Shown here one piece after another: positions 2,341-23,072 of a stretch of DNA of 56,565 bases (the stretch's first letter is position 1; each line of letters opens with the position of its first letter). The stretch covers positions 1-56,565 of the IMG/VR virus record IMGVR_UViG_3300043788_000176; one strand, given 5' to 3'. A program made the translations under genes and the position numbers. The notes under the pieces are model-generated. The model did no database searches. It was not told the origin of the DNA and was given only the letters and a program-made list of their open reading frames with translations. Origin of the DNA: a virus (taxonomy: Duplodnaviria > Heunggongvirae > Uroviricota > Caudoviricetes).

Positions 2341-2345
2341 TCTAG

Positions 2346-2421: not shown

Positions 2422-2440
2422 ATTTCAGGAGAGGCGAGAG

Positions 2441-2875
2441 ATGCGCACCATAATATTCGACATTGACGGGACTCTCGCCAATGGGGCGCACCGTCAGCAT
2501 CATTTGGCCGCCCTGAAAAAGGACTGGGATGCCTTCTACGCCGCGATGGGCGAGGACACGGCTATCCAGCCGATCATCGACTTGGCCAATCAACTCGCTT
2601 GCGACTACCACATTGTCCTCTGCACTGGGCGTCCCTCCAATTATCGCGAGGTGACCGAGCGCTGGCTCTACGACCACGATGTCCCGCGCTCGGCTCTCTA
2701 CATGCGTGCTGAAGGCGACTTTCGCGACGACACCATTGTGAAACGCGAGATGCTAGCGCAGATGCGGGCGGCTGGATTTGAGCCGTGTCTGGTCGTTGAC
2801 GATCGTACAAAAGTGGTTCGGATGTGGCGTGAGGAAGGATTGGTCTGTCTGCAATGTGCCGAGGGTGATTTCTGA
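2441..2875 (+). CDS. HAD-family phosphatase resembling the 3'-phosphatase domain of T4 PseT (Pnkp)
   Basis: FDIDGTLA motif I, CTGRP motif II, VVDDR motif IV; AGGAGAGG RBS. Confidence 0.88.
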   Translation: MRTIIFDIDGTLANGAHRQHHLAALKKDWDAFYAAMGEDTAIQPIIDLANQLACDYHIVLCTGRPSNYREVTERWLYDHDVPRSALYMRAEGDFRDDTIVKREMLAQMRAAGFEPCLVVDDRTKVVRMWREEGLVCLQCAEGDF

Positions 2876-3075
2876 TGGAAACTTGCGCGTGTCGCATTGA
2901 TTGGGTTTGCTGTTTTCGGCAAGATTGCCCGCGAGCGGCATACATTCGGCGGTTGCAGGAAGCGGCTTACGAGCAAGCGCGTGAGCTTTTAGGTGATCCG
3001 CGCGAGTGCGTTTCGGTGGGACAAGAAGCGGATTGTGATGGCGGATCGTTCAATGGCGAGGATCATGCGCTCTGA
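2875..3075 (+). CDS. Small Cys-rich hypothetical protein
   Basis: TGATG coupling to the upstream gene; stop falls in the tRNA-Gln anticodon loop. Confidence 0.5.
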   Translation: METCACRIDWVCCFRQDCPRAAYIRRLQEAAYEQARELLGDPRECVSVGQEADCDGGSFNGEDHAL

Positions 3076-3113
3076 CCGCATAGATTTGGGTTCGAATCCC
3101 AATCCGCCTGCCA
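3039..3113 (+). tRNA. trnQ: tRNA-Gln(CTG)
   Basis: tggcgga/tccgcct (U1xU72), G73, atgcg-CTCTGAC-cgcat. Confidence 0.9.
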
Positions 3114-3199
3114 ATCGCGGGTCAGAGCTTTGGGCCGTCGGTGACGGGCGGTCGTGGCCTTTGCACTTAGCTCTGGATCGAGCCCACCCTCCCCGCGAT
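3114..3199 (+). ncRNA. Unidentified structured RNA
   Basis: atcgcggg/cccgcgat outer stem, cagagct/agctctg inner stem. Confidence 0.4.
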
Positions 3200-3221
3200 T
3201 TCCAACAGAAAGGGGCGCATC

Positions 3222-3518
3222 ATGGCTGAGAACGAATACTTGACAGGAACGGGCCAGTGGCTCACCGGGGTCCATCCGCGCGAGATCTGCGTCGGCGAGC
3301 ATTGTGTGATCCACAACCCATCAGACCATTGCATGCGTGGGTTCCCGACCCACTGGCGTGCTGACCGCAAGTTGATGGAGCGCATCTGTCCGCACGGCAT
3401 CGGCCATCCCGACCCCGACGACATCGCGTTCAAGCGCGCCACCCGCGGCGACAAGTTTGCCGATACCGAGGTGGTTCACGGTTGCGACGGTTGCTGTTCG
3501 CCTCGGGGATTTGTCTGA
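3222..3518 (+). CDS. Conserved phage His/Cys-rich hypothetical protein
   Basis: CVIHNPSDH...ERICPHGIGHPDPD motif typical of a phage hypothetical family. Confidence 0.8.
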   Translation: MAENEYLTGTGQWLTGVHPREICVGEHCVIHNPSDHCMRGFPTHWRADRKLMERICPHGIGHPDPDDIAFKRATRGDKFADTEVVHGCDGCCSPRGFV

Positions 3519-3591
3519 GGCGGGTGGCCCAGGTGGGTACCGCCGGCTTTGACCCGGCGCGTGTTCGGATCGTGCCCGAAGCCCGCTTCCA
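3519..3591 (+). tRNA. trnQ: tRNA-Gln(TTG), atypical
   Basis: gccgg-CTTTGAC-ccggc, T-loop ATCGTGC, short D arm, TCCA end. Confidence 0.7.
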
Positions 3592-3592
3592 A

Positions 3593-3667
3593 CGCCCATT
3601 CCGCTACCGGCTAGGCGACCCGGTTCTCAGCCGGGCAAAGCGAGTTCGACCCTCGCATGGGCGACCA
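3593..3667 (+). tRNA. trnE: tRNA-Glu(CTC)
   Basis: cgcccat/atgggcg, cccgg-TTCTCAG-ccggg, TTCGAC. Confidence 0.88.
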
Positions 3668-3671
3668 ATAC

Positions 3672-3694
3672 GCGGGCGTGGGGGAACGGTAGAC
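3672..3694 (+). pseudogene. Orphan 5' fragment of a tRNA-Leu
   Basis: gcgggcgtgggggaacggtagac = acceptor strand plus Leu-type D arm; first 8 nt identical to the tRNA at 4205; no 3' half follows. Confidence 0.6.
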
Positions 3695-3737
3695 GGAAGA
3701 TGGTGCGGAAGAGGCGGGGTCATGATACGATCGCCTT

Positions 3738-4214
3738 ATGGATCGTCGCCGCTGGTCAGACGCGGATTTGATTAGAGCCGTAAGCGAGGCAAAATCGATT
3801 GCTTCGGTTTTGCATATCATTGGACTCGTGCCGGCCGGCGGAAACTACAGCTTGATAAAAAGCCACATTCGGCGACTGCGGTTGGATACGAATCACTTTA
3901 CTGGACAAGGATGGAGCCGCGGCTGGGAACTCCCATCAAGAGGAACGCCGCTTGCGGAATTGCTAGTAGCTGGAATTCACCTGAACACCGGCCACATCAA
4001 AAAGCGTTTGATTAAGGACAGACTGATCGAGGAGCGATGCGCCCGCTGTGGCATATCAGATTGGCTTGGACAGAAACTAAGTCTGCATCTTGACCACAAG
4101 AATGGCGCGCGAACAGATTTTCGAATGGAAAATCTGTGGCTGTTGTGTCCGAATTGTCATTCGCAGACCCCAACGTACTGCGGGCGTAACGCATCAAAAA
4201 TTGCGCGGGCGTAG
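3738..4214 (+). CDS. HNH endonuclease
   Basis: CARCG...LHLDHKNG..DFRMENLWLLCPNCH; stop is U8-A9-G10 of tRNA-Leu(TAA). Confidence 0.93.
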   Translation: MDRRRWSDADLIRAVSEAKSIASVLHIIGLVPAGGNYSLIKSHIRRLRLDTNHFTGQGWSRGWELPSRGTPLAELLVAGIHLNTGHIKKRLIKDRLIEERCARCGISDWLGQKLSLHLDHKNGARTDFRMENLWLLCPNCHSQTPTYCGRNASKIARA

Positions 4215-4281
4215 CCGAAGGTCAGGCGGAGAGATTTAAACCCTCTTGTCCTATGGGGTTCGATTCCCCGCGCCCGCACCA
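4205..4281 (+). tRNA. trnL: tRNA-Leu(TAA) without long variable arm
   Basis: gcgggcg/cgcccgc, A73, loop TT-TAA-AC, about 7-nt variable region. Confidence 0.8.
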
Positions 4282-4286
4282 ATTTT

Positions 4287-4371
4287 GTCCGAGTGGCGAA
4301 AATAGTAGACGCGCCTGTCTCATGAACAGGTGCCTCCGGGCGTGGGAGTTCAACTCTCCCCTCGCGCACCA
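4287..4371 (+). tRNA. Class II Leu-type tRNA body carrying a CAT anticodon
   Basis: D arm gtggcgaaaatagtagacgc, long variable arm, A73, loop CT-CAT-GA (G37). Confidence 0.8.
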
Positions 4372-4376
4372 GTTCA

Positions 4377-4466
4377 GGGCGGCTAACCGGACAAGCGCAC
4401 CGGCACCGGTCGGAAACCGGTTGGAGCCTTCATGGGCTTGTGGAGCGTGACCACAGCCGCCCGCCA
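4377..4466 (+). tRNA. trnS: tRNA-Ser(GGA), C33, atypical T-loop
   Basis: gggcggc/gccgccc, G73, long variable arm, loop TC-GGA-AA, T-loop AGCGTGA. Confidence 0.8.
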
Positions 4467-4473
4467 CACTAAC

Positions 4474-4561
4474 GGTTGGGTATCCGAGCCGGCGCTCGGC
4501 CTCGTCTTGAAAGCGAGTGGCACGGAGACGTGTGCGGGTCGGCACCAGCACCCAACCGCCA
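4474..4561 (+). tRNA. trnS: tRNA-Ser(TGA)
   Basis: ggttggg/cccaacc, G73, loop CT-TGA-AA, long variable arm, T-loop GTCGGCA. Confidence 0.82.
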
Positions 4562-4565
4562 ATAC

Positions 4566-4654
4566 GGGCAGTCAACCGCGAGGGCTCGCGGCCCAGCTTC
4601 GAAACCTGGTGGTGCGTGAGAGCGCATGGGACTCGGAATCTCGGCTGCCCGCCA
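4566..4654 (+). tRNA. trnS: tRNA-Ser(CGA)
   Basis: gggcagt/gctgccc, G73, loop TT-CGA-AA, long variable arm, T-loop CTCGGAA. Confidence 0.8.
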
Positions 4655-4658
4655 ATTT

Positions 4659-4747
4659 GGGGCGTGCAAGCAGACAGGCGCACTGCGCTGGATTGCTAAT
4701 CCGGGCGTACCTTCGGGTATCGGCTTCGAATGCCGGCCGCCCCGCCA
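4659..4747 (+). tRNA. trnS: tRNA-Ser(GCT)
   Basis: G73, ctgga-TTGCTAA-tccgg, long variable arm, TTCGAA. Confidence 0.85.
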
Positions 4748-4760
4748 TTCGGAGAAGGTG

Positions 4761-4934
4761 ATGGCTTGGGTCTTAGTCGCCTGCATGGTCGTTTCATTTG
4801 GCAAGCACGATATTTGCGTTACCCCGCAACCCGCCCAGCAATTTGCAACGGTTGCGGCCTGCAAAGCAGCGGCCAATAAGATTGGGCCACCTCATGACTA
4901 TTACGGGCTGTGCAAGCCCGCGGAATTCAAATGA
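4761..4934 (+). CDS. Small hydrophobic, possibly exported Cys-containing protein
   Basis: GGAGAAGG RBS, MAWVLVACMVVSFG N-terminus; stops 1 nt before tRNA-Tyr. Confidence 0.65.
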   Translation: MAWVLVACMVVSFGKHDICVTPQPAQQFATVAACKAAANKIGPPHDYYGLCKPAEFK

Positions 4935-4935
4935 T

Positions 4936-5020
4936 GGGTCGGGAAAGCTGGTGGTTCCAGCAGTCGGTCTGTAAAACCGACCTCGAATGAGGAGAGGATC
5001 GTAACCTCACCGACCCACCA
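4936..5020 (+). tRNA. trnY: tRNA-Tyr(GTA)
   Basis: gggtcgg/ccgaccc, A73, loop CT-GTA-AA, variable arm cctc/gagg, T-loop ATCGTAA. Confidence 0.88.
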
Positions 5021-5022
5021 AT

Positions 5023-5098
5023 GCCCTCGTAGCTCAAAGGTAGAGCATTCGGTTGATAACCGTACCCCCGCCCTGGTCAGTACAGGGCGGGGGTACCA
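5023..5098 (+). tRNA. trnI: tRNA-Ile(GAT) with a competing alternative hairpin
   Basis: Canonical D arm, loop TT-GAT-AA, T-loop GTCAGTA, ACCA; 5062-5096 also forms a perfect 14-bp hairpin. Confidence 0.8.
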
Positions 5099-5113
5099 GA
5101 ACAGGAGACGGCG

Positions 5114-5359
5114 ATGACATGGAACCACCGCGTGATGCGGATGGACTATCCCGACGAGACCCAATTCGAGATTCATGAGGTCCACTACGATACCCCTGAT
5201 GGTCCGCCGCGTTCCTACACCAAGCGCGCGGTCGGCGTCGTCGCTGAAGACCTCGCAGGATTGGAATGGACGCTCAAGGCGATGCTGTCGGCGCTTGAAA
5301 AGCCTGTGCTGACACCAGGCGATTTCCCCGATGGAGGCAAATCGTGCCCTACTTCATGA
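5114..5359 (+). CDS. Conserved phage hypothetical protein
   Basis: AGGAG RBS; WNHRV...IHEVHYD motif. Confidence 0.8.
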   Translation: MTWNHRVMRMDYPDETQFEIHEVHYDTPDGPPRSYTKRAVGVVAEDLAGLEWTLKAMLSALEKPVLTPGDFPDGGKSCPTS

Positions 5360-5409
5360 TCAACATTGAATCTTGGCCAAAAGAGGATTGGTTTGCCAGA
5401 TTGAGTTGA

Positions 5410-5483
5410 GGGGGTATAGCTCAGAGGGAGAGCAGTCGGCCCTTAACCGATCGATCAGGGTTCGAGCCCCTGTGCCCCTACCA
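5410..5483 (+). tRNA. trnK: tRNA-Lys(CTT), C33 variant
   Basis: Canonical D and T arms, loop CC-CTT-AA, ACCA. Confidence 0.85.
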
Positions 5484-5501
5484 ACTGAAAGGATATAGCC
5501 G

Positions 5502-5732
5502 ATGGCTTGGCGGCTTCTGGTTTACAGCGCAGAGACTGACCGACTGACAGCGTCGCTGGACATTCCAGAGTTGTTCTCGCCCGATGTCGAATTCCTTGCT
5601 GAGGTAAAACCGGAGGATGATGGGTTGGGCGAATACCCGCTAGGCGCGCATCAGGCGCGGATCATAGCCGAACGCGCTGGTCTGATTTTGCCAGTTGCCG
5701 AATCGGCCTATTCGGTCGAACTAATTGTCTAG
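5502..5732 (+). CDS. Small acidic hypothetical protein
   Basis: AAGGA RBS; ORF fits between tRNAs. Confidence 0.7.
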   Translation: MAWRLLVYSAETDRLTASLDIPELFSPDVEFLAEVKPEDDGLGEYPLGAHQARIIAERAGLILPVAESAYSVELIV

Positions 5733-5733
5733 T

Positions 5734-5807
5734 GGGCGTGTCTTCCAACGACAGGAAAGTCGGTTGTCTCCCGGCAAATCGGGGTTTGACTCCCCGCACG
5801 CTCGCCA
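5734..5807 (+). tRNA. trnD: tRNA-Asp(GTC)
   Basis: gggcgtg/cacgctc, G73, loop TT-GTC-TC. Confidence 0.85.
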
Positions 5808-5855
5808 GGTTTCCTAGTTGCATTTGTAGGGTAGGCCCACTAAGTTGCTACCCTA

Positions 5856-6389
5856 ATGGGATGGAAGCCAATTGATCTCAATACGGTGCCGATCCGCAGC
5901 CGCGGAGTTTATTTGGATGCCTATGTTCCAGAACATCCTTTTGCGGATCGGCGCGGGCGCGTGCTTCTCCATAGGCTGATTGTTGAAAACAAGGTCGGCC
6001 GTTACCTAACGGCCGCAGAGATAGTTCATCATGATAATGAGAACCCGAGAGATAATGATCCAGATAATCTTTTGATAAAATCCGCACAGGAGCATTCGGC
6101 GCATCATCATCCAAGAGTGAAACGCGTAGAGCTTAAGTGCCTGAATTGTGGATCATCAGTATATAGAAGGCCAAAGCAGATAAAAAACGAGAATGTATTT
6201 TGTGACCGGCGTTGTCGCGGTTTATACAGTCTTGGCCATGCCTTTGGCGGATGCGCGCCGCGCGAGCGCAAGACCCCGCATGGCTCTGCTGGTGACTATC
6301 GTGCTGGCTGTAGATGCGATCTCTGTAAAGCATCTCACGCAAGAAAGATGAGAGAGCGGAGATTGAGACTAAAACGGAGGCTAGGGTAA
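5856..6389 (+). CDS. HNH endonuclease with C-terminal zinc fingers
   Basis: HRLIVE..VGRYL...EIVHHDNENPRDNDPDNL, then CLNC/CDRRC/CRCDLC; lower GC; stop inside tRNA-Pro. Confidence 0.92.
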   Translation: MGWKPIDLNTVPIRSRGVYLDAYVPEHPFADRRGRVLLHRLIVENKVGRYLTAAEIVHHDNENPRDNDPDNLLIKSAQEHSAHHHPRVKRVELKCLNCGSSVYRRPKQIKNENVFCDRRCRGLYSLGHAFGGCAPRERKTPHGSAGDYRAGCRCDLCKASHARKMRERRLRLKRRLG

Positions 6390-6449
6390 CGGTAACCCGC
6401 TCGCTTTGGGGGCGAGAGAATCTCGGTTCGAACCCGAGGCTTCCGACCA
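6375..6449 (+). tRNA. trnP: tRNA-Pro(TGG)
   Basis: cggaggc/gcttccg, A73, loop TT-TGG-GG, TTCGAA. Confidence 0.92.
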
Positions 6450-6511
6450 GCTTTTCCTCTTTACAACCGCCGTTAGTTATCCTAACATGGCTTATCTGAG
6501 AGGGACGCAAT

Positions 6512-7183
6512 ATGACCATGGAAGTAAGTTTGCGACGGGCGTCGCAGATCATCAACGCGATTCAGAGGCGCATTGAGCCGCCACGTGAGGAGCCAGAGGA
6601 AGACTCGTATGGTCGTCGTCGGCGCCGCCACGCCAAGAGCGTAAATCCATTGGCGGCGGTCGTGTCGGTTGATGTTGACACGACGGTTGCGGCGGGGGTG
6701 CTCGCGCGCCGCGACGAGTTGCGCCGCAAAATGGAGGCGACTTGGCGGCTGATGGAAGTGCTGACGGCACTGCGTAATGCGGTCGGTGCCGCCAATCATC
6801 AGTATGGCATCGCGAGTCTTGTGACATCGCGCGCTGGCTTGCTTCGCAAGCAGCAAATCCTCGACGGCATGATCAAGGAACTGGCTGCGGCTGGCACTCT
6901 CGACGAGAACGAGTTGGAGAGGAAACTGGACGCGTTGCGTGATCGGATCGCCGCTATGGCGGCTCGTCCATCATCGCGCTATGGCGAACCGGAAACGCCC
7001 GCCGACAAACTGTCGGTGCCGTTGCTGACGGTTGCCGATCATCGGGAACTACAGCGCGACTTGCTGGCGGCCAATCGCCGCTTGGTCGAGATTGACGACC
7101 AGTTGTCTGCCAAGAATGCGAGCAACAAGATCGCGATCGACGGCGGCGATGTCGAGGTGTTGGAAGCGGAGGGCATCATCTGA
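6512..7183 (+). CDS. Coiled-coil hypothetical protein
   Basis: GAGG RBS, 223 aa heptad-rich ORF. Confidence 0.8.
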   Translation: MTMEVSLRRASQIINAIQRRIEPPREEPEEDSYGRRRRRHAKSVNPLAAVVSVDVDTTVAAGVLARRDELRRKMEATWRLMEVLTALRNAVGAANHQYGIASLVTSRAGLLRKQQILDGMIKELAAAGTLDENELERKLDALRDRIAAMAARPSSRYGEPETPADKLSVPLLTVADHRELQRDLLAANRRLVEIDDQLSAKNASNKIAIDGGDVEVLEAEGII

Positions 7184-7400
7184 GATCGGGGGTTCGCCCC
7201 TGATGGGCGGGCGGGTGAGTGAGTAGAGAAGCGGGCAAAATCTTCAACTCCGGGGTCGCCCACCGATCGTGTCTTTGGTAACCGCGCCGGTTTCCGTTAC
7301 GACGGACGATGACGTGGTAATCCGGGCACACCGGGCGTGCTGGTTGATGGTTGCTGATTGCTGTTTGATCCGTCCGATTCTCTGTTCCTCCCCGCCCGTT
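7184..7400 (+). ncRNA. Candidate structured RNA of about 215 nt
   Basis: gatcgg/ccgatc (7184/7268); purine-rich 7209-7230 complementary to pyrimidine-rich 7378-7397; internal tccgt/acgga hairpin. Confidence 0.35.
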
Positions 7401-7429
7401 TCCCTTGCCGGATAAAGGATGTCGGTAAA

Positions 7430-7687
7430 ATGGAAAGAACACTCACACTATCAGTGATGCCAGTAGGCACGCCTGTGTGGCTGATGACCACGAATTGGCA
7501 GATCCGTGCCACCTTCATCAAGAAAATCACGATCGCGGTGGAAAGTGAGTGGGGCGCTCCCATGATCACCTATGACACCTGTCACGATGATTTTTGGGGT
7601 CAGCATGCCCAGGTAGGTCAGACCATTTTCCTCAGTGAGGATGATGCCCGCGAGGAGGTTGATCGACGGAAGAAGTTGGGCCGCTAG
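7430..7687 (+). CDS. Hypothetical protein
   Basis: Start moved to ATG 7430 after AAGGA; ends TAG TAG inside tRNA-Val. Confidence 0.6.
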   Translation: MERTLTLSVMPVGTPVWLMTTNWQIRATFIKKITIAVESEWGAPMITYDTCHDDFWGQHAQVGQTIFLSEDDAREEVDRRKKLGR

Positions 7688-7753
7688 TAGACCGGCTTAG
7701 AACGGCGCGCCTACACCGCGCAGAACGGGGTTCGACTCCTCGGCGGCCTACCA
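7678..7753 (+). tRNA. trnV: tRNA-Val(TAC), C33 variant
   Basis: gggccgc/gcggcct, A73, gcgcg-CCTACAC-cgcgc, TTCGAC. Confidence 0.85.
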
Positions 7754-7787
7754 ATCGCACACGGCTTGCGTTGGCGGCGGCAATGCT

Positions 7788-8147
7788 ATGACAGAACTTG
7801 AGGCGTGTACCTATGCTGCCGATCTTCTCAAAAGAGTTGGGTTCGAGCATCGGTACACCTCGATGCAGAGCGAGGCGTGTTACTATGGGCTGCCGGGGCG
7901 ACGCGAAGTCGTCAGAATTGCAGGACATCGATACGGTGGTGCCGAATACGGGTTGGCCCCTGTTGTCACATGCCTGACAATCACCGCGAGCAAGGAATGG
8001 TCGGAGGTACAAATCTGTAATCTGACCGCCAGCGCTATCGGCAGTTATTTGCTTCGGTGCGCGGGGATCATGCCCCTTAGCGCTAAAGAGCGCGCCCGTC
8101 GGCAACATCGCGCGCGGCTAACCCAGAAGGAGGTTCCGATGACGTGA
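7788..8147 (+). CDS. Hypothetical protein
   Basis: 119-aa ORF in tandem gene run. Confidence 0.65.
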   Translation: MTELEACTYAADLLKRVGFEHRYTSMQSEACYYGLPGRREVVRIAGHRYGGAEYGLAPVVTCLTITASKEWSEVQICNLTASAIGSYLLRCAGIMPLSAKERARRQHRARLTQKEVPMT

Positions 8148-8169
8148 CGCTCAACATCGGAGGTAAATC

Positions 8170-8868
8170 ATGCGCTACGACATGCACGAGGTCGTCATCG
8201 AGCGACCTCGTACTGGCGGCGTGTATCGCTACCGCAACATCCGTTCGCGGACTAAATTGGAGGATTGGCCAGACAAGCAGGGGATGAGCCGTCCCTACCC
8301 TGAGCACAAGGAGTTTTCCGATCTGCTCGGACCGTTGCGGAGATTTTTAGTCAGACAGGTCGGTCGGACGTGGAACGATGTCTACTCCGAAATCCGGCAG
8401 CGGATCAGCCCGCGCTCGACGGTGCAAATCCACATTCTCGGGCACCTCGATGGCATGGTTTCGACCAAGCTGATCGAGCGCGGTGGCAAACTTTTTGTGT
8501 TCGGTCCGTACTGGGTCCACGAGGTATTTCCTGGCGATCTCTACGTCAATCCGCGCACCGGCATTTTGTGTCGGATGCCGGAACGGCGGCGCTATCCAAG
8601 ACCGACCCCACCGACCGATGTCGTGGTTCTAGCTCCAGAGAGCGAGCTGCGTTTGGTCAATGGGATTTGGTACTGGGCGGTGTTCGCCGGCGTGCCAGCG
8701 CCTTCTGTTGATGCCGAGGGTCGGACGATTCGCAGCATCGCGGTCGATTGCTTTACGGGCAAGGAAAGCCCCTATCCGGGGCGCTATCGGATCGGCAAGC
8801 GGCAAGCCAACCACGCCGATCTCAAACGCCACGGTCTCGAAAACAACGACGCGTTACGCTTCCGGTGA
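8170..8868 (+). CDS. Conserved basic hypothetical protein
   Basis: GGAGG RBS; DMHEVVIERPR..DLLGPLRRFL..QVGRTWNDVYSEI motif; stop in the tRNA-Glu D-loop. Confidence 0.85.
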   Translation: MRYDMHEVVIERPRTGGVYRYRNIRSRTKLEDWPDKQGMSRPYPEHKEFSDLLGPLRRFLVRQVGRTWNDVYSEIRQRISPRSTVQIHILGHLDGMVSTKLIERGGKLFVFGPYWVHEVFPGDLYVNPRTGILCRMPERRRYPRPTPPTDVVVLAPESELRLVNGIWYWAVFAGVPAPSVDAEGRTIRSIAVDCFTGKESPYPGRYRIGKRQANHADLKRHGLENNDALRFR

Positions 8869-8923
8869 GGCGCCCCGTCTTTCAAGCGGGAGAGGCTCGG
8901 TTCGACTCCGGCACGCGTCACCA
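8848..8923 (+). tRNA. trnE: tRNA-Glu(TTC)
   Basis: gacgcgt/acgcgtc, loop CT-TTC-AA, TTCGAC, ACCA. Confidence 0.9.
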
Positions 8924-8943
8924 AACCAAGCAGGAGGACGACG

Positions 8944-9255
8944 ATGCCCATCTCTCGACCACCACCAGTGTCGGATGTGCCCGAGGCTGAAATCACCCAC
9001 TGGCAAATACGACAGTTGGAAAATGGCGATCGGCATCTCGTTGGCGTCGTCCAGAACAGCGGTCACGATGGTCGGGTGTCTTCGAAGATCATGATGATCG
9101 GCGAGCGCATCGTGACCACGCGGAGTGGGCGCAGATATTTTCTGCGTGGGCAACCGGGGACTGCTCCGGTTGCCGAATACGTCTGGCAAATGTGGTGCCG
9201 ATACAACGGGGTTGACCCCGAGACGACGGTTGACGTGACCAAAGATTTTTCTTGA
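8944..9255 (+). CDS. Conserved hypothetical protein
   Basis: AGGAGG RBS; HLVG..GRVSS..TTRSGRRYFLRGQPG motif. Confidence 0.8.
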   Translation: MPISRPPPVSDVPEAEITHWQIRQLENGDRHLVGVVQNSGHDGRVSSKIMMIGERIVTTRSGRRYFLRGQPGTAPVAEYVWQMWCRYNGVDPETTVDVTKDFS

Positions 9256-9281
9256 CACCATAGGTCAGGGCGTCCTATATT
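9252..9281 (+). promoter_or_regulatory. Sigma70-type promoter for the Y RNA-rsr unit
   Basis: TTGACA-N18-TATATT about 10 nt upstream of the first Y RNA. Confidence 0.75.
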
Positions 9282-9291
9282 CCCCTCACAA

Positions 9292-9380
9292 GATCGGCGG
9301 CGTAGGGTAACGGTTACTTCGTTGCTGTGAACGACGATGGGCTTCGGTCCAGTTCCCGTTCCCGCCTGTTCCCCGATCGC
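9292..9380 (+). ncRNA. Y RNA 1 (Ro60-binding, two-hairpin insert)
   Basis: 5' gatcgg-cggcgtagggtaacgg-ttacttcg pairs with 3' ccgttccc-gcctgttcc-ccgatc; directly upstream of rsr. Confidence 0.8.
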
Positions 9381-9396
9381 GTGAAATAGAGGTTTT

Positions 9397-9505
9397 GACC
9401 GGCGGCGTTAGGCAACGGCTACTTCGAGTTCGACTCTCGATATCCCCGCCACCCTATGGGGATAGGGCTTCAGGGCCTTTCCGTTTCCGCTTGTTCCCCG
9501 GTCGC
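9397..9505 (+). ncRNA. Y RNA 2 (T-arm-like hairpin plus two hairpins)
   Basis: Same scaffold with compensatory changes (gaccgg/ccggtc); cgag-TTCGACT-ctcg T-arm mimic. Confidence 0.8.
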
Positions 9506-9514
9506 AGTTCTAGT

Positions 9515-9652
9515 GGACGGCAGACGGCGTAGGGCAGAGGTACTTCGTAGCTCAACTGGTAGAGCATCAGTCTATCAACTGACGGTAGTTGGTTCGAATC
9601 CAACCGACCCCGCAAGGGGTTAGCTCCTCTTCCCGCTTATTCCTCTGCCGCC
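9515..9652 (+). ncRNA. Y RNA 3, YrlA-type tRNA mimic
   Basis: Same scaffold plus D arm tagctcaactggtagagc, anticodon-like stem with 6-nt loop, T arm gttgg-TTCGAAT-ccaac, no CCA. Confidence 0.88.
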
Positions 9653-9693
9653 TATTCCTGCGATCGGTTCCTTTCAACAGAGGAGTAGGTCGT

Positions 9694-11097
9694 ATGGCAC
9701 GATTGAACGTCGCGGCCCGGAAGCCGCAAACTCCACCACAGGCTACCAATCCAATCTATCCGTCGAATGTCCAGCGTACCCATGAGGGTGCGCCTGCGGC
9801 AGAGATTCCGGTCGAACTCCAACTGCGTCGCGCTGTGTGTTCCTGCCTGTTGTGGGAGGACACCCACTACGAGAGCGGCAAGGACATCGGCGACCGCATT
9901 GTCGAACTCGTCGGCAAGGTGCCGGTGGGAGTCGCGACCAACTTGGCGATGGACGCCCGCAGTCATTTCCATTTGCGGCATGCGCCGCTGCTGGTCATGG
10001 CGGCTGTCGCGGCGCCGGGTCGAGGCGGTTCACGGATGATCGGCGAGGCGCTGGCGAACGTGATCCAGCGGCCTGACGAATTGACCGAATTCCTGGCGAT
10101 CTATGCCAAGGTCTACGGCGTGCCGCCAAATGCTGTCCGCAAGCGGCTGTCGGCACAGGTCAAGAAGGGTATCGCAGCGGCGTTCGGCAAGTTCGATCGC
10201 TATCAGCTCGGCAAGTATTTCTCGCCCTCTGGTGAGAAGGGTCAGCCGATCCGCGCCCGCGATGCGATGTTCTTGACGCACCCAAAGCCGCTCGACGAAG
10301 AGCAGGCCGCTCATTGGAAGCAGCTTGTCGCCAAAAAGATCGTCGAGGAGGGTGGGGCTGACACTTGGGAAACCAAGCTGTCGAGCGGCAAGGACAAGAA
10401 GGAGACCTTCGAAGAGCAGTTGCGTGCTGGGAAGCTCGGCTATCTCGCCCTATTGCGCAATCTGCGCAACATGACGCAGGCGGGGGTTGATGAAACCCTG
10501 ATTGCCGACGCAATCGTCGGTCGTCGTGGGGCTCGCCGGGTGTTGCCATTCCGCTATGTCACGGCGGCGCGCGCTTGCCCGCAGATGGCAAAGCCGCTTG
10601 ATCAAGCACTGCAGCAAGCGATTCTTGATCTTCCGGTATTGCCGGGCCGCACCGTGGTGCTGGTCGATGTCTCAGGTTCGATGGACGCGCCAATCTCAGG
10701 CAAGTCCGAACTGAACCGCATTGACGTGGCGGCGACATTGGGAGCGATCGTGCCTGGCGACTGTCAGACATTCTCGTTCTCGCACTCGGTAGTTGCAGTT
10801 GGCCAGCCGCGCGGTCTCTCTGGCATCGAGGCGATCAAGCGCAGCCAGCAGCACGGCGGAACGTATCTCGGTCAGGCTGTCGATTTCGTGAACAGGATTG
10901 ATCATGATCGGCTCATCGTGATCACCGATGAACAGAGTCATGACCACGTGCCGGCACCGAAGGCGAGCAAGGCTTACATCATCAACGTCGCCTCATATCG
11001 AAACGGCGTCGGCTATGGCGATCGGTGGATTCATCTGGATGGATTCTCCGAGCAGACACTCCGCTTCATTGCTGAGTTCGAGAAAATCCTGAATTGA
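9694..11097 (+). CDS. rsr: Ro60/TROVE-domain RNA-binding protein (Rsr)
   Basis: THEGAPA, LRRAVCSCLLWED, IQRPDELTEFLA, LLRNLRN, VLPFRY, VLVDVSGSM and VITDEQ (vWA MIDAS); AGGAG RBS before ATG 9694. Confidence 0.96.
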   Translation: MARLNVAARKPQTPPQATNPIYPSNVQRTHEGAPAAEIPVELQLRRAVCSCLLWEDTHYESGKDIGDRIVELVGKVPVGVATNLAMDARSHFHLRHAPLLVMAAVAAPGRGGSRMIGEALANVIQRPDELTEFLAIYAKVYGVPPNAVRKRLSAQVKKGIAAAFGKFDRYQLGKYFSPSGEKGQPIRARDAMFLTHPKPLDEEQAAHWKQLVAKKIVEEGGADTWETKLSSGKDKKETFEEQLRAGKLGYLALLRNLRNMTQAGVDETLIADAIVGRRGARRVLPFRYVTAARACPQMAKPLDQALQQAILDLPVLPGRTVVLVDVSGSMDAPISGKSELNRIDVAATLGAIVPGDCQTFSFSHSVVAVGQPRGLSGIEAIKRSQQHGGTYLGQAVDFVNRIDHDRLIVITDEQSHDHVPAPKASKAYIINVASYRNGVGYGDRWIHLDGFSEQTLRFIAEFEKILN

Positions 11098-11300
11098 CCC
11101 CTGACGATCTCCGGGAGGCTGGGCTCTATCTCTATGGTTGGGGATGGCAGACCCGGCTTTCCGAGACGCTTGGTGTCGCGGATCGCACCGTGCGGCGATG
11201 GGCGTCGGGTGCCGTCGAGGTTCCCGGTCCAGCGCGGTGCGCGATTCACTGCCTCGTCGAGAGCAAAAAGTTACGCATGGCCACGTCGTCAACTGGATAG
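11094..11300 (+). CDS. Small HTH DNA-binding protein
   Basis: QTRLSETLGVADRTVRRWASG; overlaps the rsr stop; stop in the tRNA-Arg D-loop. Confidence 0.8.
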   Translation: MTPDDLREAGLYLYGWGWQTRLSETLGVADRTVRRWASGAVEVPGPARCAIHCLVESKKLRMATSSTG

Positions 11301-11356
11301 ACACCGAGATTACGAATCTCGCATTAGTGTGGGTTCGAATCCCACCGTGGCCTCCA
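11279..11356 (+). tRNA. trnR: tRNA-Arg(ACG)
   Basis: ggccacg/cgtggcc, cgaga-TTACGAA-tctcg. Confidence 0.9.
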
Positions 11357-11364
11357 TACTCTAC

Positions 11365-11436
11365 GGCCCGCTACCTTGGACGGTGCCTCGGTCTTCTAAT
11401 CCGAGTGAGAGGGTTCGAATCCTTCGCGGGTCACCA
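11365..11436 (+). tRNA. trnR: tRNA-Arg(TCT)
   Basis: ggcccgc/gcgggtc, loop CT-TCT-AA. Confidence 0.88.
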
Positions 11437-11438
11437 CT

Positions 11439-11510
11439 GCGCTCGCCAGCGGATCTGGCGTCTGGCCTCCGAAGCCGGAATGCGGGGTCCGACTCCCCGC
11501 GGGCGCGCCA
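11439..11510 (+). tRNA. trnR: tRNA-Arg(CCG)
   Basis: gcgctcg/cgggcgc, loop CT-CCG-AA. Confidence 0.85.
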
Positions 11511-11512
11511 GA

Positions 11513-11590
11513 GCGCGACTAGCCCAATTTGGCAGAGGCGGCTGTTTCAAGAACAGCAGGTTCGGGGTTCGAATCCCCGGTCGCGTACCA
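11513..11590 (+). tRNA. trnL: tRNA-Leu(CAA) with short variable arm
   Basis: gcgcgac/gtcgcgt, A73, gctgt-TTCAAGA-acagc, 5-nt variable region. Confidence 0.85.
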
Positions 11591-11594
11591 TCAT

Positions 11595-11671
11595 GGGATC
11601 GTGACGCAATTGGATAGCGTAGCGGATTTTTAATCCGAAGGTTGTGAGTTCGAGCCTCACCGGTCCCACCA
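11595..11671 (+). tRNA. trnK: tRNA-Lys(TTT)
   Basis: gggatcg/cggtccc, loop TT-TTT-AA. Confidence 0.92.
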
Positions 11672-11672
11672 A

Positions 11673-11746
11673 GCCCACATAGCTCAGTGGTAGAGCAATG
11701 GATTCGTAACCCATAGACGCCTGTTCGATCCAGGCTGTGGGCACCA
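11673..11746 (+). tRNA. trnT: tRNA-Thr(CGT)
   Basis: gcccaca/tgtgggc, loop TT-CGT-AA. Confidence 0.92.
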
Positions 11747-11758
11747 CTAACTTTTCTC

Positions 11759-11787
11759 TTGACGCCATCGGGATCGCTGCTTATCTT
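11759..11787 (+). promoter_or_regulatory. Sigma70-type promoter for the suppressor tRNA-pth2 unit
   Basis: TTGACG-N17-TATCTT, 15 nt before the CUA tRNA. Confidence 0.75.
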
Positions 11788-11802
11788 GCGCTCTAGGAAC
11801 AA

Positions 11803-11876
11803 GCCTCGTTAGCTCAGCAGCCGAGCAGCCGGCTCTAACCCGGTGGAGGTGGGGGCGGCACCCACACGAGGCACCA
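11803..11876 (+). tRNA. Amber suppressor tRNA (CTA anticodon)
   Basis: gcctcgt/acgaggc, A73, CCA; D stem gctc/gagc; gccgg-CTCTAAC-ccggt; T arm gtggg-GGCGGCA-cccac. Confidence 0.88.
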
Positions 11877-11890
11877 GACAGGATGTCGAG

Positions 11891-12268
11891 ATGTCGTAGG
11901 TAGACCAAACTCTCCGCATTTACGCGATCCTGCGCGGAGACCTTGACATGCTTCCCGGTAAGGCTGCGAGCCAATCCGGGCACGCTTTCCTCGACTCGTT
12001 TCTCCAAGCCCATCCCGATATTCAACGCGCCTATCTCGCTGACGGTCACGGCACCAAGGTCGTACTCGTAGCTGAGGATGCGGCGGCATTGTTCGGCGCG
12101 CAGGCTGCGGCCCGTGCGGCGGGTTTGCCATGCGCGTTGGTCGAGGATAGCGGGCATATCATGCCGCCGCATTTTGACGGCTCTCTGATCACCACTGCGC
12201 TCGGCATCGGGCCAGCTACACGCGATCAAGTACGTCGCATCACCGAAAGGTTCGGCTGCATGCGATGA
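11891..12268 (+). CDS. pth2: Peptidyl-tRNA hydrolase type 2 (Pth2) with in-frame TAG at codon 3
   Basis: LRIYAILRGDLDMLPGKAASQSGHA, KVVLV and TALGIGP match Pth2. AGGA-N7-ATG(11891) TCG TAG is in frame; the track start at 11948 truncates the conserved N-terminal strand. Confidence 0.85.
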
Positions 12269-12272
12269 TCCT

Positions 12273-12350
12273 GGGGCGGTAGCTTACAGAAAGCGCCAAT
12301 GGCTCGAAAGAGCCTGCGGAGACGGCAGTTCGTCACTGTCCCGCCCACCA
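12273..12350 (+). ncRNA. tRNA-like RNA 1 lacking an anticodon loop
   Basis: gggcgg/ccgccc+ACCA, D arm gctt/aagc, T arm ggcag-TTCGTCA-ctgtc; anticodon arm ends in ggctc-GAAA-gagcc. Confidence 0.75.
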
Positions 12351-12358
12351 AATCCGAT

Positions 12359-12441
12359 GCGTCGGTAGCTCAGCGGTAGAGCGCTCGCGGCACCTCGGTG
12401 CTAAAGAGAGAGGGATGGTTCAACTCCTCCCCGACGCGCCA
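12359..12441 (+). ncRNA. tRNA-like RNA 2 lacking an anticodon loop
   Basis: gcgtcgg/ccgacgc+GCCA, canonical D arm, TTCAACT T-loop; anticodon arm has an internal loop capped by gcac-CTCG-gtgc. Confidence 0.75.
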
Positions 12442-12464
12442 CTCTCACACAGGGAACCTTAGTC

Positions 12465-13079
12465 ATGTCTCGCGCAGCGCTCAGAGAGCGAAGTAGTAGA
12501 TCGCTGCACTGGAGAACGCTCGCACTCAACGCAGACGGGCGACCGCTGTCTACATACCCACTTTCGATTGTAAGCGCACAAGATGCGGTATCGGCGATCT
12601 GGCGCCAGCGGGCCATCGTGATCGAAACGTGGGAAGGCGCGTTCTTCCGCTCGCCATCCACGACGATTGCGGTTCCCAAAGTCATGATGCTCAGGGAATA
12701 CGCCCCTATCTCCGGGGAACCGAAATTTTGTCGGCGCTCGATCCTGTTGCGGGACAAGTTCCGGTGTCAGTATTGTGGGCAGGAGTTTCCATCGCAGGAG
12801 TTAACCTACGATCATGTCATTCCGCGGTCGCTTGGCGGGAAGACGGTCTGGACGAACATTGTCACCGCCTGCCTACGGTGCAACGCCGCAAAGGCGAATA
12901 GCCTCCCGCATTACAGTGGCCGGAAGGGGGTCGTCCAAGCTGGCAAGATGCGTCCGCTGAAGGAGCCGCGTCGGCCGACGACCGCCGAATTGCTGCGCGC
13001 GGGGCTCCAGTTTTTGCCCAATGATTTGAAAGAGTCCTTCGGGGATTTCATCTATTGGGGCGTGGAATTGCACGCATGA
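12465..13079 (+). CDS. HNH endonuclease (McrA-like, proteobacterial family)
   Basis: TLALNADGRPLSTYPLS..LRDKFRCQYCG..LTYDHVIPRSLGGKTVWTNIVTACLRCN. Confidence 0.93.
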   Translation: MSRAALRERSSRSLHWRTLALNADGRPLSTYPLSIVSAQDAVSAIWRQRAIVIETWEGAFFRSPSTTIAVPKVMMLREYAPISGEPKFCRRSILLRDKFRCQYCGQEFPSQELTYDHVIPRSLGGKTVWTNIVTACLRCNAAKANSLPHYSGRKGVVQAGKMRPLKEPRRPTTAELLRAGLQFLPNDLKESFGDFIYWGVELHA

Positions 13080-13123
13080 CACTGTGGCGCGGATCGGCTA
13101 GAGTGAGGCGCTGATCCGCGCCA
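13077..13123 (+). promoter_or_regulatory. Putative promoter with overlapping 11-bp inverted repeat, start of virion module
   Basis: ATGACA-N17-TAGAGT; tggcgcggatc (13085) and gatccgcgcca (13113) flank the -10 box. Confidence 0.5.
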
Positions 13124-21092: not shown

Positions 21093-23072
21093 ATGACCCT
21101 TGTCCCGATCAAGTTGCGCCCTGGCGTGACAACTCAGCCGACTCCTCTGCTAAATGAATCTGGCTGGTCCCAAAGTCAAAACATCCGCTGGAAAGATAGC
21201 TTGCCAGAAAAATACGGCGGCTATTTCCAGTTCGCGCAAGTGCCGTCTGACGCGGGCGTGCCCCTAGCATTACAGGCGTGGACCTCTCTGGCGAACCTAG
21301 ACTTTCTCGGCATCGCCTGCTTCCATGGTCTTGAGGTTTTCCTGTCGGAGCAGGTCTACGATATCACGCCGAACACCATCTTCTCGCTGGTGCCGCTGTC
21401 AATCTCGACCACCACCGGCAGTGCCGTCGTTGTGATCGCAGACTCGGTCAACGCGCCGATTGTCGGTGAGTGGTTTCAGATTCACGATCCAATTTCTGTT
21501 GGCGGGATCATCCTGCAAGGAAGTTACGGGGTCACCGCGATCGGCGCGGGCACCTATTCGATTATGTCGGCGGTTGAGGCGACATCTTCAGTGGTGGCTG
21601 GTGGCCAATCCCGCATTCTGACTACGGTTGCGGGGTCCAAGACAGTCACCGTCAATTTACCCAACCACGGCTTGTTCAATGGGCAAATCGCGAGCTTTCC
21701 GGACCCCACGCCGATCGGCGGTCTGACGCTGCAAGGCAATTATTTGACCGTCTACGTTAACTCTAGCACTTACGAGGTGACAGCCGCGACTGCGGCAACG
21801 TCGAGTGTAACCGAGCCTGAGCAGCAGGCTGCATTCGGCGCTGGCGAGGCAATGCAGATTACCTTCTTCAATCCCGCGACTGGTGGGACGCAAGTTGATA
21901 TGCACGCCTCGCAGGCGACGATGGCGAACTGGGGCGAGTTTCTGATGTGGTGCCCGCAGTTCGGTCCGGTGTTTGTCTGGATGCCGGCATCTGGGACATC
22001 AGTCCCAGCCCAGGACATCACGACCGCACCGCAGAGCAACGGCACCATTTTTGTCGCGACACAAGAGGAGCAACTTTTCTGCCTCGGCAGCGTCAATGCG
22101 GCGACTGGTCTGTTTGACCCAATGCTGATCAATTGGTCTGATGTTGCTGATTATACTGATTTTATTCCAACCGTTACCAATCAAGCGGGCGACTTTCGCT
22201 TGGTGACTGGCTCGCGAATTGTGGGTGGCTTGGCGTTGGCAGGCGGCAATATCATCTGGACCGACCTGTGTGCGTATTGGGCGCAGTATCTTGGGTCGCC
22301 TCTGGTTTGGGGGTTTCAGCCTATTGGGCTCAATTTTGGTTTGGTCGGGCCGCATGCTTTTGGCACATTGGGAGCCAATGTATTCTGGATGACCCAGCGT
22401 CAATTCGTGTTCGTGTCGCCGGGCGCGTCGCCGCAGGTCATGGCGTGTGCGGTCTGGGACTTGGTGTTCAAGAACATGGATCTGGCGAACCTCTCCAATG
22501 TCGTGTGCGAGACCAATTCCTTCTACAATGAGGTATCGTGGGAAGTGCCGCAGGCAGATGGCACCGTGACTCGTGCGACCATACAGATTGATACGGGGTT
22601 GTGGAGCTACACGGTTCTGCGTAATAACAGTGACGACGTGCCACGTAGGGCGTGGATTGACCAGTCGGTGTTTGGGGCGCCACTGGCAGCTGATGCAACC
22701 GGCATTATCTGGCAGCATGAAACGGGGAAGAATGCTGGGACACAGCCACTGGCGTGGTATCTGAAGACGGGTATTATCATGGTCGCCGAGGGCGACCAGA
22801 TTACGTTTTTTAGAGAAGTCAAGCCAGACTTCAAGTTTAGCGAAACCGGCCCTGGCCCTGGTGTTGTCCAATGCAAGATTTATGTCTATCAGGACCCGCT
22901 CGATTCCCCTACTGTGAAAGGACCTTTTTATATAACAGACAAGACAAGATCAATTCCTGGAGCTAGAGGAAGAGGAAGGGGTATCCAATTCGAATTTAGT
23001 GGCAATGACCTTTCGAGTTGGGTAAGAGGAGGAATGATCAGGTACAGAGGTAGTTCGGATGGACGAAGATAA
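21093..23072 (+). CDS. Tail nozzle / DNA-stabilisation protein (P22 gp10-like)
   Basis: MTLVPIKLRPGV..ESGW...RW..PEKYGG start; INWSDVADYTDF.P..TNQAGDFRL..GSRIVG; RARGRGRG-type C-terminus. Confidence 0.85.
   Translation: MTLVPIKLRPGVTTQPTPLLNESGWSQSQNIRWKDSLPEKYGGYFQFAQVPSDAGVPLALQAWTSLANLDFLGIACFHGLEVFLSEQVYDITPNTIFSLVPLSISTTTGSAVVVIADSVNAPIVGEWFQIHDPISVGGIILQGSYGVTAIGAGTYSIMSAVEATSSVVAGGQSRILTTVAGSKTVTVNLPNHGLFNGQIASFPDPTPIGGLTLQGNYLTVYVNSSTYEVTAATAATSSVTEPEQQAAFGAGEAMQITFFNPATGGTQVDMHASQATMANWGEFLMWCPQFGPVFVWMPASGTSVPAQDITTAPQSNGTIFVATQEEQLFCLGSVNAATGLFDPMLINWSDVADYTDFIPTVTNQAGDFRLVTGSRIVGGLALAGGNIIWTDLCAYWAQYLGSPLVWGFQPIGLNFGLVGPHAFGTLGANVFWMTQRQFVFVSPGASPQVMACAVWDLVFKNMDLANLSNVVCETNSFYNEVSWEVPQADGTVTRATIQIDTGLWSYTVLRNNSDDVPRRAWIDQSVFGAPLAADATGIIWQHETGKNAGTQPLAWYLKTGIIMVAEGDQITFFREVKPDFKFSETGPGPGVVQCKIYVYQDPLDSPTVKGPFYITDKTRSIPGARGRGRGIQFEFSGNDLSSWVRGGMIRYRGSSDGRR

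Follow-up and report, generated by a model that had tools for sequence, protein, structure and literature searches.

We describe two small RNAs, RNA1 and RNA2, which are encoded in tandem in a stretch of 56,565 nucleotides (nt) of DNA from a virus of the Caudoviricetes (positions 1 to 56,565 of the IMG/VR record IMGVR_UViG_3300043788_000176). We refer to the whole stretch as the window. It is the first 56.5 kilobases (kb) of a complete virus record, which has 120,565 base pairs (bp) and direct terminal repeats. Both RNAs resemble transfer RNAs (tRNAs) and end in CCA, and in both of them a hairpin with a 4-nt loop takes the place of the anticodon loop. Comparisons with diverged phages argue that RNA1 and RNA2 are selected, non-decoding mimics of tRNA, not decaying tRNAs. 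The two RNAs lie directly behind pth2, which encodes a peptidyl-tRNA hydrolase, and we tentatively suggest that they work with that enzyme.

Of the two RNAs, RNA2 is the cleaner tRNA form. Its acceptor stem (GCGUCGG/CCGACGC) has seven perfect pairs and is followed by U8 and A9. Its D arm (GCUC-AGCGGUA-GAGC) is canonical, and its T arm (GGA(U)GG-UUCAACU-CCUCC) has one bulged U in the stem and is followed by G73-CCA. RNA1 is only loosely a cloverleaf. Its acceptor stem has six Watson-Crick pairs, with G1 mismatched to A72 (an equivalent description is one additional G at the 5' end, opposite A73), its D loop has 5 nt and lacks G18-G19, and its T loop lacks A58. The substitute for the anticodon arm has 2 bp, a 3x3 internal loop, 5 bp, and a GAAA tetraloop (12306-12309) in RNA1, and 3 bp, a GC/AAA internal loop, 5 bp, and a CUCG tetraloop (12394-12397) in RNA2. 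These arms are 24-25 nt long. They have no U33, no anticodon, and no 5-bp stem with a 7-nt loop. Because the loops have just 4 nt, without U33 or an anticodon, RNA1 and RNA2 cannot decode. The initial annotation of this DNA, which was made from the sequence alone, had reported two CCA-ended tRNA-like RNAs with a tetraloop instead of the anticodon loop, and our reading of the sequence agrees. It had also listed the parts of tRNA that are kept (acceptor stem, U8-A9, D arm, T arm, and NCCA). Both RNAs do have these parts, but with the departures described above for RNA1's acceptor stem, D loop, and T loop and for RNA2's T stem. Roles that depend on an anticodon, such as acting on RelA at the ribosome, had been suggested as well, and are unlikely for RNAs that have none.

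Table 1. Features of RNA1, RNA2, and their surroundings in the window.
Feature	Position	Strand	Basis or details
RNA1, tRNA-shaped, with GAAA-capped arm, weak 1:72, A then CCA	12273..12350	+	sequence, folding, models
RNA1 acceptor 5' strand GGGGCGG, then U8 A9	12273-12279	+	sequence
RNA1 D arm GCUU-ACAGA-AAGC	12282-12294	+	sequence
RNA1 anticodon-arm substitute CC / AAU / GGCUC-GAAA-GAGCC / UGC / GG	12296..12319	+	sequence, folding
RNA1 T arm GGCAG-UUCGUCA-CUGUC	12324-12340	+	sequence
RNA1 acceptor 3' strand CCGCCC, then A, then CCA	12341-12350	+	sequence
RNA2, tRNA-shaped, with CUCG-capped arm, G73-CCA	12359..12441	+	Rfam tRNA, model R1
RNA2 anticodon-arm substitute CUC / GC / GGCAC-CUCG-GUGCU / AAA / GAG	12384..12408	+	sequence, folding
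Swappable cassette (tRNA-CUA, TAG-gated pth2, RNA1, RNA2)	11790..12464	+	blastn breakpoints
Cassette promoter, sigma-70-like (TTGACG, 17-nt spacer, TATCTT)	11759..11787	+	pattern scan, 9/12 matches
Amber-suppressor tRNA (CUA anticodon, A73, encoded CCA)	11803..11876	+	Aragorn; model R1, 35.2 bits
pth2 (Pfam PTH2); start ATG-TCG-TAG, in-frame TAG at 11897-11899	11891..12268	+	PF01981, 50.2 bits
HNH endonuclease gene (neighbour, outside the cassette)	12465..13079	+	Pfam HNH_5 and HNH
Ro60/TROVE gene (rsr), open reading frame	9694-11097	+	same strand as RNA1 and RNA2, about 1.2 kb upstream of them

We fetched the genomic contexts of Pth2 homologs, and the same layout (a suppressor tRNA, a pth2 with an early stop codon, and tRNA-like RNAs) was present at 50-97% identity of Pth2, in loci L090 to L096, L007, L099, L101, L102, L106, L110, L125, L126, and L141. 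L090 (Pth2 97% identical) is partial and contains the start of RNA1, with U1 instead of G1, which would pair with A72. Two loci have both types of RNA: L091 (64%), with tRNA-CUA, a pth2 that begins GTG-TCA-TAG, an RNA1-type RNA (1920-1992), and an RNA2-type RNA; and L096 (63%), with an upstream tRNA that has an 8-nt anticodon loop, an early-TAG pth2, an RNA1-type RNA (1732-1804), and an RNA2-type RNA. L093 (64%) has tRNA-CUA, a pth2 that begins ATG-ACG-TAG, an RNA1-like RNA with two GNRA hairpins, and an RNA2-type RNA. L092 (66%) has tRNA-UCA, a pth2 that begins ATG-ACC-TGA, a mini RNA with an acceptor stem and T arm, an RNA2-type RNA with a 5-nt loop, and then an HNH gene. Three more loci have one RNA2-type RNA each, with an arm of about 8 bp that is capped by GCAA (L094, 64%), UUCG (L095, 66%), or GUAA (L007, 54%).

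For statistics on pairing, we aligned eight RNA2-type sequences (alignment A3). In this alignment, 96.9% of helix cells are paired, and five of the seven acceptor pairs show changes on both sides. None of 500 shuffles reached the observed values, and no slid register came close. Across 16 RNA2-type members, G73 is present in 13, and CCA is encoded in 12. There is a U at position -1, which is favoured by RNase P, in 12 of the 16. The loop has 4 nt in 12 of the 16 as well: seven of these are GNRA, as compared to about 3% expected for random 4-mers, and the others are UUCG, CUUG (twice), CUCG, and UCAC. The modal stem of the arm is 8 bp. RNA2 from the window fits this type in its D/T elbow, 7-bp acceptor stem, G73-CCA, 3 + 5 bp arm, and tetraloop, and its design is matched in L096 (CUG / GC / GGUCU-CUUG-GGACC / AA / UAG). 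The two arms have in common the 3 bp, a GC/AA(A) loop, 5 bp, and a CUYG cap, with compensatory changes in the inner helix.

The RNA1 type is a smaller family and is less tightly defined: its members in L091 and L096 are convincing, and the candidates in L093 and L092 are divergent. RNA1 and the two convincing homologs have in common an N-GG-N-GGG acceptor strand, an A and then CCA at the 3' end, and a stem with a GNRA cap, which is GAAA in the window, GCAA in L091, and GCGA in L096 (this stem has 6 bp in the homologs). The D stem, the acceptor pairs 4:69 and 5:68, and the capped stem of RNA1 covary with those of L091 and L096. The initial annotation had argued that two dissimilar RNAs with a common architecture are unlikely to be the product of random decay, and the compensatory changes in diverged phages bear this out. 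Homologs with normal 7-nt loops and without covariation are not what we found: tetraloop-capped stems recur, and the stems covary.

Models of the two types recover RNA1 and RNA2. RNA2 scores 41.9 bits against Rfam's model of tRNA (RF00005, gathering score 29), and the central part of its anticodon arm has 19 nt, as against the 11 that the model expects. RNA1 has no match to this model at E values up to 10. We built a model from RNA2-type sequences only (R1) and another from two foreign RNA1-type sequences only (R2). R1 gives RNA2 75 bits, and it matches RNA1 from end to end (32.1 bits, E ~1e-5). R2 also matches RNA1 (24.8 bits, E = 0.0024 in 210 kb). A model of RNA2-type sequences finds additional members behind pth2 in L099, L101, L102, L106, L110, L125, L126, and L141, and a mini form in L133; both there and in L092, only the acceptor stem and T arm are left of the RNA. 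When we searched 63 loci with R2, there were no further convincing RNA1-type members; the other matches were RNA2-type RNAs or ordinary tRNAs. The folding energies of RNA1 and RNA2 are not significant (z = -2.2 and -1.1) and we did not use them as evidence, so our case rests on the models and on the comparison across loci.

Aragorn calls neither RNA1 nor RNA2 as a tRNA, and it finds no transfer-messenger RNA (tmRNA) in the window. At permissive E values, the Rfam matches are tRNA (for RNA2) and sub-threshold matches to YrlA, the raiA hairpin, and plastid families. With blastn, positions 11800-13100 had no match in cultured phage genomes. A search for RNA1 and RNA2 at the DNA level in L003 and L002, which are relatives of the window that are described below, found only a chance match of 14 nt. 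Pieces of the virus record are present in soil metagenome and metatranscriptome runs. In one soil metatranscriptome, contigs from RNA libraries span the junctions from pth2 to RNA1 (12147-12297) and from RNA1 to RNA2 (12316-12466), and their only insertions or deletions are in the spacer between the RNAs and in an internal loop. These contigs are weak evidence for transcription: the depth is around 2, DNA might have been carried over, and contigs cannot give the ends, strand, or level of an RNA. Also, we picked the runs by words from the cassette, so the missing cover of the HNH gene and the upstream tRNAs is uninformative.

RNA1 and RNA2 belong to a compact cassette. The stop codon of pth2 is at 12266-12268, RNA1 begins 4 bases later, and the start codon of the HNH gene is 23 nt past the end of RNA2. 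In four relatives of the window (L002, L010, L003, and L011), homology to the window breaks exactly at 11789 and 12465 (blastn). L002, L010, and L003 have an open reading frame for a DUF7873 protein and two permuted tRNA-like RNAs at this site instead, and in L011, a tRNA-Thr(CGU) abuts the start codon of HNH. These relatives lose or replace the whole block from 11790 to 12464, so tRNA-CUA, pth2, RNA1, and RNA2 are gained and lost as a single unit. The HNH gene itself is 96.5% identical to the window's at the DNA level in L002 and L010, and its protein is 73% identical in L003 (72% by tblastn). The promoter-like site ahead of the cassette sits in sequence that is common to the window, L002, and L003, and by eye, TTGAC(G/A) boxes also precede the cassettes of L091, L093, L094, and L096. 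A pattern scan found no terminator-like site up to 13200, and so none ahead of HNH.

The RNAs are tied to pth2 by position as well. Among 52 pth2 loci from IMG/VR, all ten matches to anticodon-less RNAs were downstream of pth2 and none were upstream, with flanks of equal length on both sides. (The ten include L108, which is the same place as L007.) The distance from the stop codon of pth2 is 4-12 nt, or else one tRNA intervenes. Of the partners that the initial annotation had proposed, Pth2 is the only one with this kind of linkage: the RNAs come and go with pth2 and the suppressor tRNA, and they always lie downstream.

The pth2 genes are themselves gated by stop codons. In 47 of 59 phage pth2 loci, including the window (11891-11899), the first in-frame stop upstream of the conserved N-terminal strand of Pth2 is TAG. 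This early TAG is usually 2-7 codons after an ATG, and many of the loci have no alternative start codon ahead of the conserved strand. The early stop covaries with the adjacent suppressor tRNA: TAG with CUA in many loci, TGA with UCA in L092 (1945-1953), and TAA with UUA in L136. Upstream of pth2 in L095 (1342-1418) and L096 (1234-1310), we noticed tRNAs whose anticodon loop has 8 nt (UUUUCUAA and CUCUUAAA) and is thus not a plain CUA loop. They could be four-base decoders.

What might RNA1 and RNA2 do? Our preferred explanation, which we hold only tentatively and which derives from sequence comparisons, is that they are non-decoding surrogates of tRNA, matured by RNase P, that work with the cassette's Pth2 through their acceptor/T-arm half. 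The cassette promoter would drive a transcript that also covers the amber-suppressor tRNA and the TAG-gated pth2, and RNA1 and RNA2 would be excised like tRNAs (by RNase P and 3' trimming). Once excised, they would be stable, end in CCA, and be blind to codons, and they would be functional parts of the suppressor-tRNA/Pth2 module. In place of the anticodon stem-loop, a rigid helix of about equal length with a tetraloop cap would maintain the L-shape of tRNA, while the acceptor/T-arm half would be a dedicated ligand of the Pth2-family hydrolase. RNA1 and RNA2 might be carriers of acyl or peptidyl groups that are discharged by Pth2, or they might be competitive buffers that keep Pth2 off ordinary charged tRNAs.

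We favour Pth2 as the partner because the acceptor stem and T arm are constant, because the RNAs are strictly co-inherited with pth2, and because their position behind it is fixed. Throughout the family, the acceptor stem, the NCCA end, and the T arm are constant, as is the D/T elbow in most cases, and the most reduced relatives consist of just an acceptor stem with a T arm. RNase P and enzymes that act on the acceptor end use this domain, and bacterial Pth1 contacts no part of a tRNA beyond the CCA-acceptor-T domain (PMC3488237).

Several observations weigh against a partnership with Pth2. First, RNAs of this kind are found within 700 nt in only about one-fifth of viral pth2 loci, and in the cultured jumbo phages Atu_ph07 and Phosso, pth2 is present with no tRNA-like RNA next to it. 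Since most pth2 loci lack them, Pth2 does not need RNAs like RNA1 and RNA2. Second, Pth2 is unrelated to Pth1, which is the enzyme whose contacts with tRNA we cited. Third, conservation extends to the D/T elbow and to the arm length of about 8 bp, neither of which an enzyme of the Pth type would need; this conservation therefore points to a partner that reads the whole L-shape. Finally, the linkage to pth2 could arise from a common theme (such as an anti-defence island) or from co-mobility, and not from physical partnership.

The main rival explanation is that RNA1 and RNA2 are decoys or sponges for host immunity that targets tRNAs, which we consider possible but rather doubtful. The targets would be anticodon nucleases or toxins that act at the acceptor end (toxSAS pyrophosphokinases, MenT-type nucleotidyltransferases, or GNAT acetyltransferases), and the RNAs would be either uncleavable or sacrificial. 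The adjacent Pth2 would clean up the N-blocked aminoacyl-tRNAs that such toxins make. A stable tetraloop stands exactly where anticodon nucleases cut, so the capped arm would resist them, and the conserved L-shape, arm length, and NCCA end are as expected for a mimic of an intact tRNA. The cassette also lies within a large array of phage tRNAs, and the two types of RNA (with A73 or G73) could mimic two classes of target. Pth reverses the acetylation of tRNA by TacT (PMC9241777), and the acceptor stem is what guides the choice of tRNAs by the toxSAS FaRel2, which is linked to anti-phage immunity (10.1101/2024.07.05.602228). However, the sequences of the acceptor stems vary greatly among phages, which is unexpected if one isoacceptor is being mimicked. 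We did not identify a defence gene or a toxin partner. Acting by stoichiometry would require high expression, and the strict position downstream of pth2 does not follow from a role as a decoy alone.

It is less likely that RNA1 and RNA2 act in cis, as signals for processing or stability. As with the t-elements of plant mitochondria, tRNA-shaped modules could provide cut sites for RNase P and RNase Z or could protect a 3' end; they would set the end of the pth2 mRNA and separate it from the next cistron. The tight spacing of pth2, RNA1, RNA2, and HNH would fit, as would the lack of a terminator-like site in between. The first element downstream of pth2 is always 4-12 nt past its stop codon, and a U at -1 with an encoded RCCA would suit a good substrate of RNase P. 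But in L094, L099, L106, and L125, an ordinary suppressor tRNA is the first element downstream, and the anticodon-less RNA is still present after it. In L091, L095, and L096, the gene after the RNAs is convergent, so there is no cistron to separate. Furthermore, any tRNA would serve for this purpose, which leaves G73, the elbow, the 8-bp arm with its tetraloop, and the pairing of two types unexplained.

A bolder idea, for which we would give rather long odds, is that the RNAs are acylated at their CCA ends and serve as codon-independent acceptors. Together with Pth2, they would strip nascent or blocked acyl groups from the translation apparatus and hydrolyse them. For example, they might relieve ribosomes that have stalled at ends of mRNAs which arise from read-through by the suppressor or from the excision of tRNAs. 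The A73 and G73 types would then be two dedicated carriers.

We think it very improbable that RNA1 and RNA2 are Y RNAs, that is, tRNA mimics of the YrlA/Yrn1 kind that are partners of the phage's Ro60 (Rsr). The rsr gene is on the same strand and well within 4 kb, there is a weak match to YrlA at 12299-12407, and the alternative cassette of L003 and L002 has two permuted tRNA-like modules with long closing helices like those of Mycobacterium smegmatis YrlA (PMC4201824). But the match to YrlA (RF02553) scores just 17.5 bits, far below the gathering score of 69, and it spans parts of both RNAs. RNA1 and RNA2 have the arm order of a normal tRNA, not a permuted one, and each has its own open acceptor stem. 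Neither has a long terminal helix or an exact GNCGAAN0-1G motif; the nearest sequence, CUCGAAAG, has the wrong first base. We also considered a YrlA fold that would span both RNAs, and rejected it: the acceptor strands of the two RNAs can pair with each other at 4 of 7 positions, as compared to 6-7 bp within each RNA's own stem.

The distribution of rsr does not suggest a partnership, either. It is present at 96% identity in L003 and L011, which both lack RNA1 and RNA2, and no TROVE gene was found in the fetched flanks of the cassettes of L091 and L093-L096. Similarly, HNH is kept in L002, L003, L010, and L011, all without the RNAs. The initial annotation had named Ro60 and the HNH protein as potential partners. 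Both are unlikely because their genes persist without the RNAs and because there are better, Y-RNA-like candidates directly upstream of rsr.

Those candidates are three tandem RNAs at 9285-9665. They have a common 5' motif (GGCGGCGUAGGG.A..GG.UACUUCG) and a common complementary, pyrimidine-rich 3' strand, and each has a long terminal helix. Inside the third unit is a tRNA-like core, which has a D arm, an arm with a 7-nt loop, and a T arm (43 bits against Rfam's tRNA, at model positions 5-66). L003 has the same element, at 204-267. To judge by their sequences, these RNAs look like Y RNAs of the Yrn1 type, and they are better candidates for binding Ro60 than RNA1 and RNA2 are.

The alternative cassette, at 3624-3910 in L003 and likewise in L002 and L010, includes the DUF7873 protein and two circularly permuted tRNA-like modules. 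The order within a module is T arm, acceptor 3' strand with ACCA or GCCA, linker, acceptor 5' strand, and D arm. Each module is closed by a long, imperfect helix, as in YrlA from M. smegmatis, and a strong terminator hairpin follows the two modules.

Last, we see almost no prospect that RNA1 and RNA2 are tRNA pseudogenes in decay, or tRNAs whose anticodon loop contains a small intron: degenerate copies are frequent in the tRNA arrays of phages and RNA1 is non-canonical (G1 x A72, a small D loop, and an odd T loop), but homologs with Pth2 at 50-66% identity keep their stems paired by compensatory changes, and they keep tetraloops with the excess of GNRA described above. An intron in particular was rejected: no excision restores a 5-bp stem and a 7-nt loop, and there is no bulge-helix-bulge and no match to group I introns. 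The internal loops are symmetric 3x3 (RNA1) or 2x3 (RNA2), and there are homologs with perfect stems of 8-9 bp.

How do RNA1 and RNA2 compare to known mimics of tRNA? Like YrlA and Yrn1 (RF02553; PMC4201824), they are non-coding, have a T arm, a D arm, and an acceptor-like stem, and are encoded near rsr, and YrlA-type RNAs are known in phages too. In M. smegmatis, YrlA has a 7-bp acceptor stem, is cut by RNase P, and gains CCA (PMC4201824). Unlike RNA1 and RNA2, YrlA is circularly permuted, it ends in a long helix that binds Ro, and its acceptor is closed by a loop. RNA1 and RNA2 end at the acceptor, are closed by a tetraloop on the anticodon side, have no Ro-binding motif, and are linked to pth2 instead of to rsr. 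The tRNA-like domain of tmRNA also has an acceptor stem, a T arm, a CCA end, and no anticodon, and its function belongs to the field of peptidyl-tRNA and ribosome rescue. But tmRNA depends on SmpB, includes a coding part and a long connecting helix, and has a D arm that is reduced, and its G3:U70 pair serves for alanylation. RNA1 and RNA2, in contrast, have G3-C70, a full cloverleaf, and no open reading frame.

Other non-decoding, cloverleaf-like RNAs that are excised by RNase P and RNase Z include the vtRNAs of murine gammaherpesvirus 68, the mascRNA of MALAT1, and the t-elements of plant mitochondria. Some of these receive CCA and yet are not aminoacylated, and all are eukaryotic or organellar. 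We know of none with a tetraloop-capped arm of fixed length, or with a tie to a peptidyl-tRNA hydrolase or a suppressor tRNA. Frameshift-suppressor or quadruplet tRNAs, with anticodon loops of 8-9 nt, also have a non-standard anticodon arm and can lie beside phage pth2 (for example, upstream of it in L095 and L096). These keep an open loop, U33, and an anticodon, in contrast to the closed 4-nt loops and extended stems of RNA1 and RNA2.

Although mimics of tRNA are well known (tmRNA, Y RNAs, and viral tRNA-like structures), our search of the literature found no published description of an anticodon-less RNA family that is linked to pth2, or of a phage family with the whole L-shape, CCA, and a tetraloop for the anticodon. 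That such a family is locked to a peptidyl-tRNA hydrolase that itself needs a phage suppressor tRNA seems to be an undescribed combination. It points to unexplored ways that phages might manipulate, or defend at, the acceptor end of tRNA. As tRNA bodies, the RNAs are also natural and compact; they are blind to codons and probably immune to anticodon nucleases. Their existence affects annotation too: Aragorn mislabels several members of the family as tRNA-His, Cys, Pro, Val, or Tyr, or as '???'.

As for where the RNAs came from, the RNA1-type RNAs of L091 (1920-1992) and L096 (1732-1804) have a D arm (UC-GUCU-AAGAGAA-GGAC) and a T loop starting with AUCG that resemble those of phage tRNA-Glu (such as L147, 276-349), which hints that the RNA1 type might derive from tRNA-Glu. 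RNA2 scores closest to the same phage's tRNA-Thr and tRNA-Met, and some of its relatives have acceptor stems like that of tRNA-Asn (UCCUC...G73). In L094 (1903-1978), L125 (996-1150), and L093 (1383-1938), we noticed that D loops which lack GG and end in GCA co-occur with UGCAA T loops (with G55 for U55). This combination is found both in tRNA-like RNAs and in the neighbouring suppressor tRNAs, and it may be a compensatory change in the tertiary pairs of the elbow.

The window's tRNA array (413-11876) has at least 23 tRNA genes, with CCA encoded in all of them. Homologs of the HNH protein are repeatedly encoded within or at the borders of phage tRNA arrays (the window, L012, L054, and L092), as expected for a homing-type endonuclease of tRNA regions. 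Among the long open reading frames in the window, the stop codons are TGA (31), TAA (9), and TAG (7), and given this mixed usage, the genetic code is not globally changed. One of these long frames, at 23038-23799 (+ strand), ends in TAG, and its frame remains open for another 210 codons. It could be a read-through target of the phage's amber suppressor.

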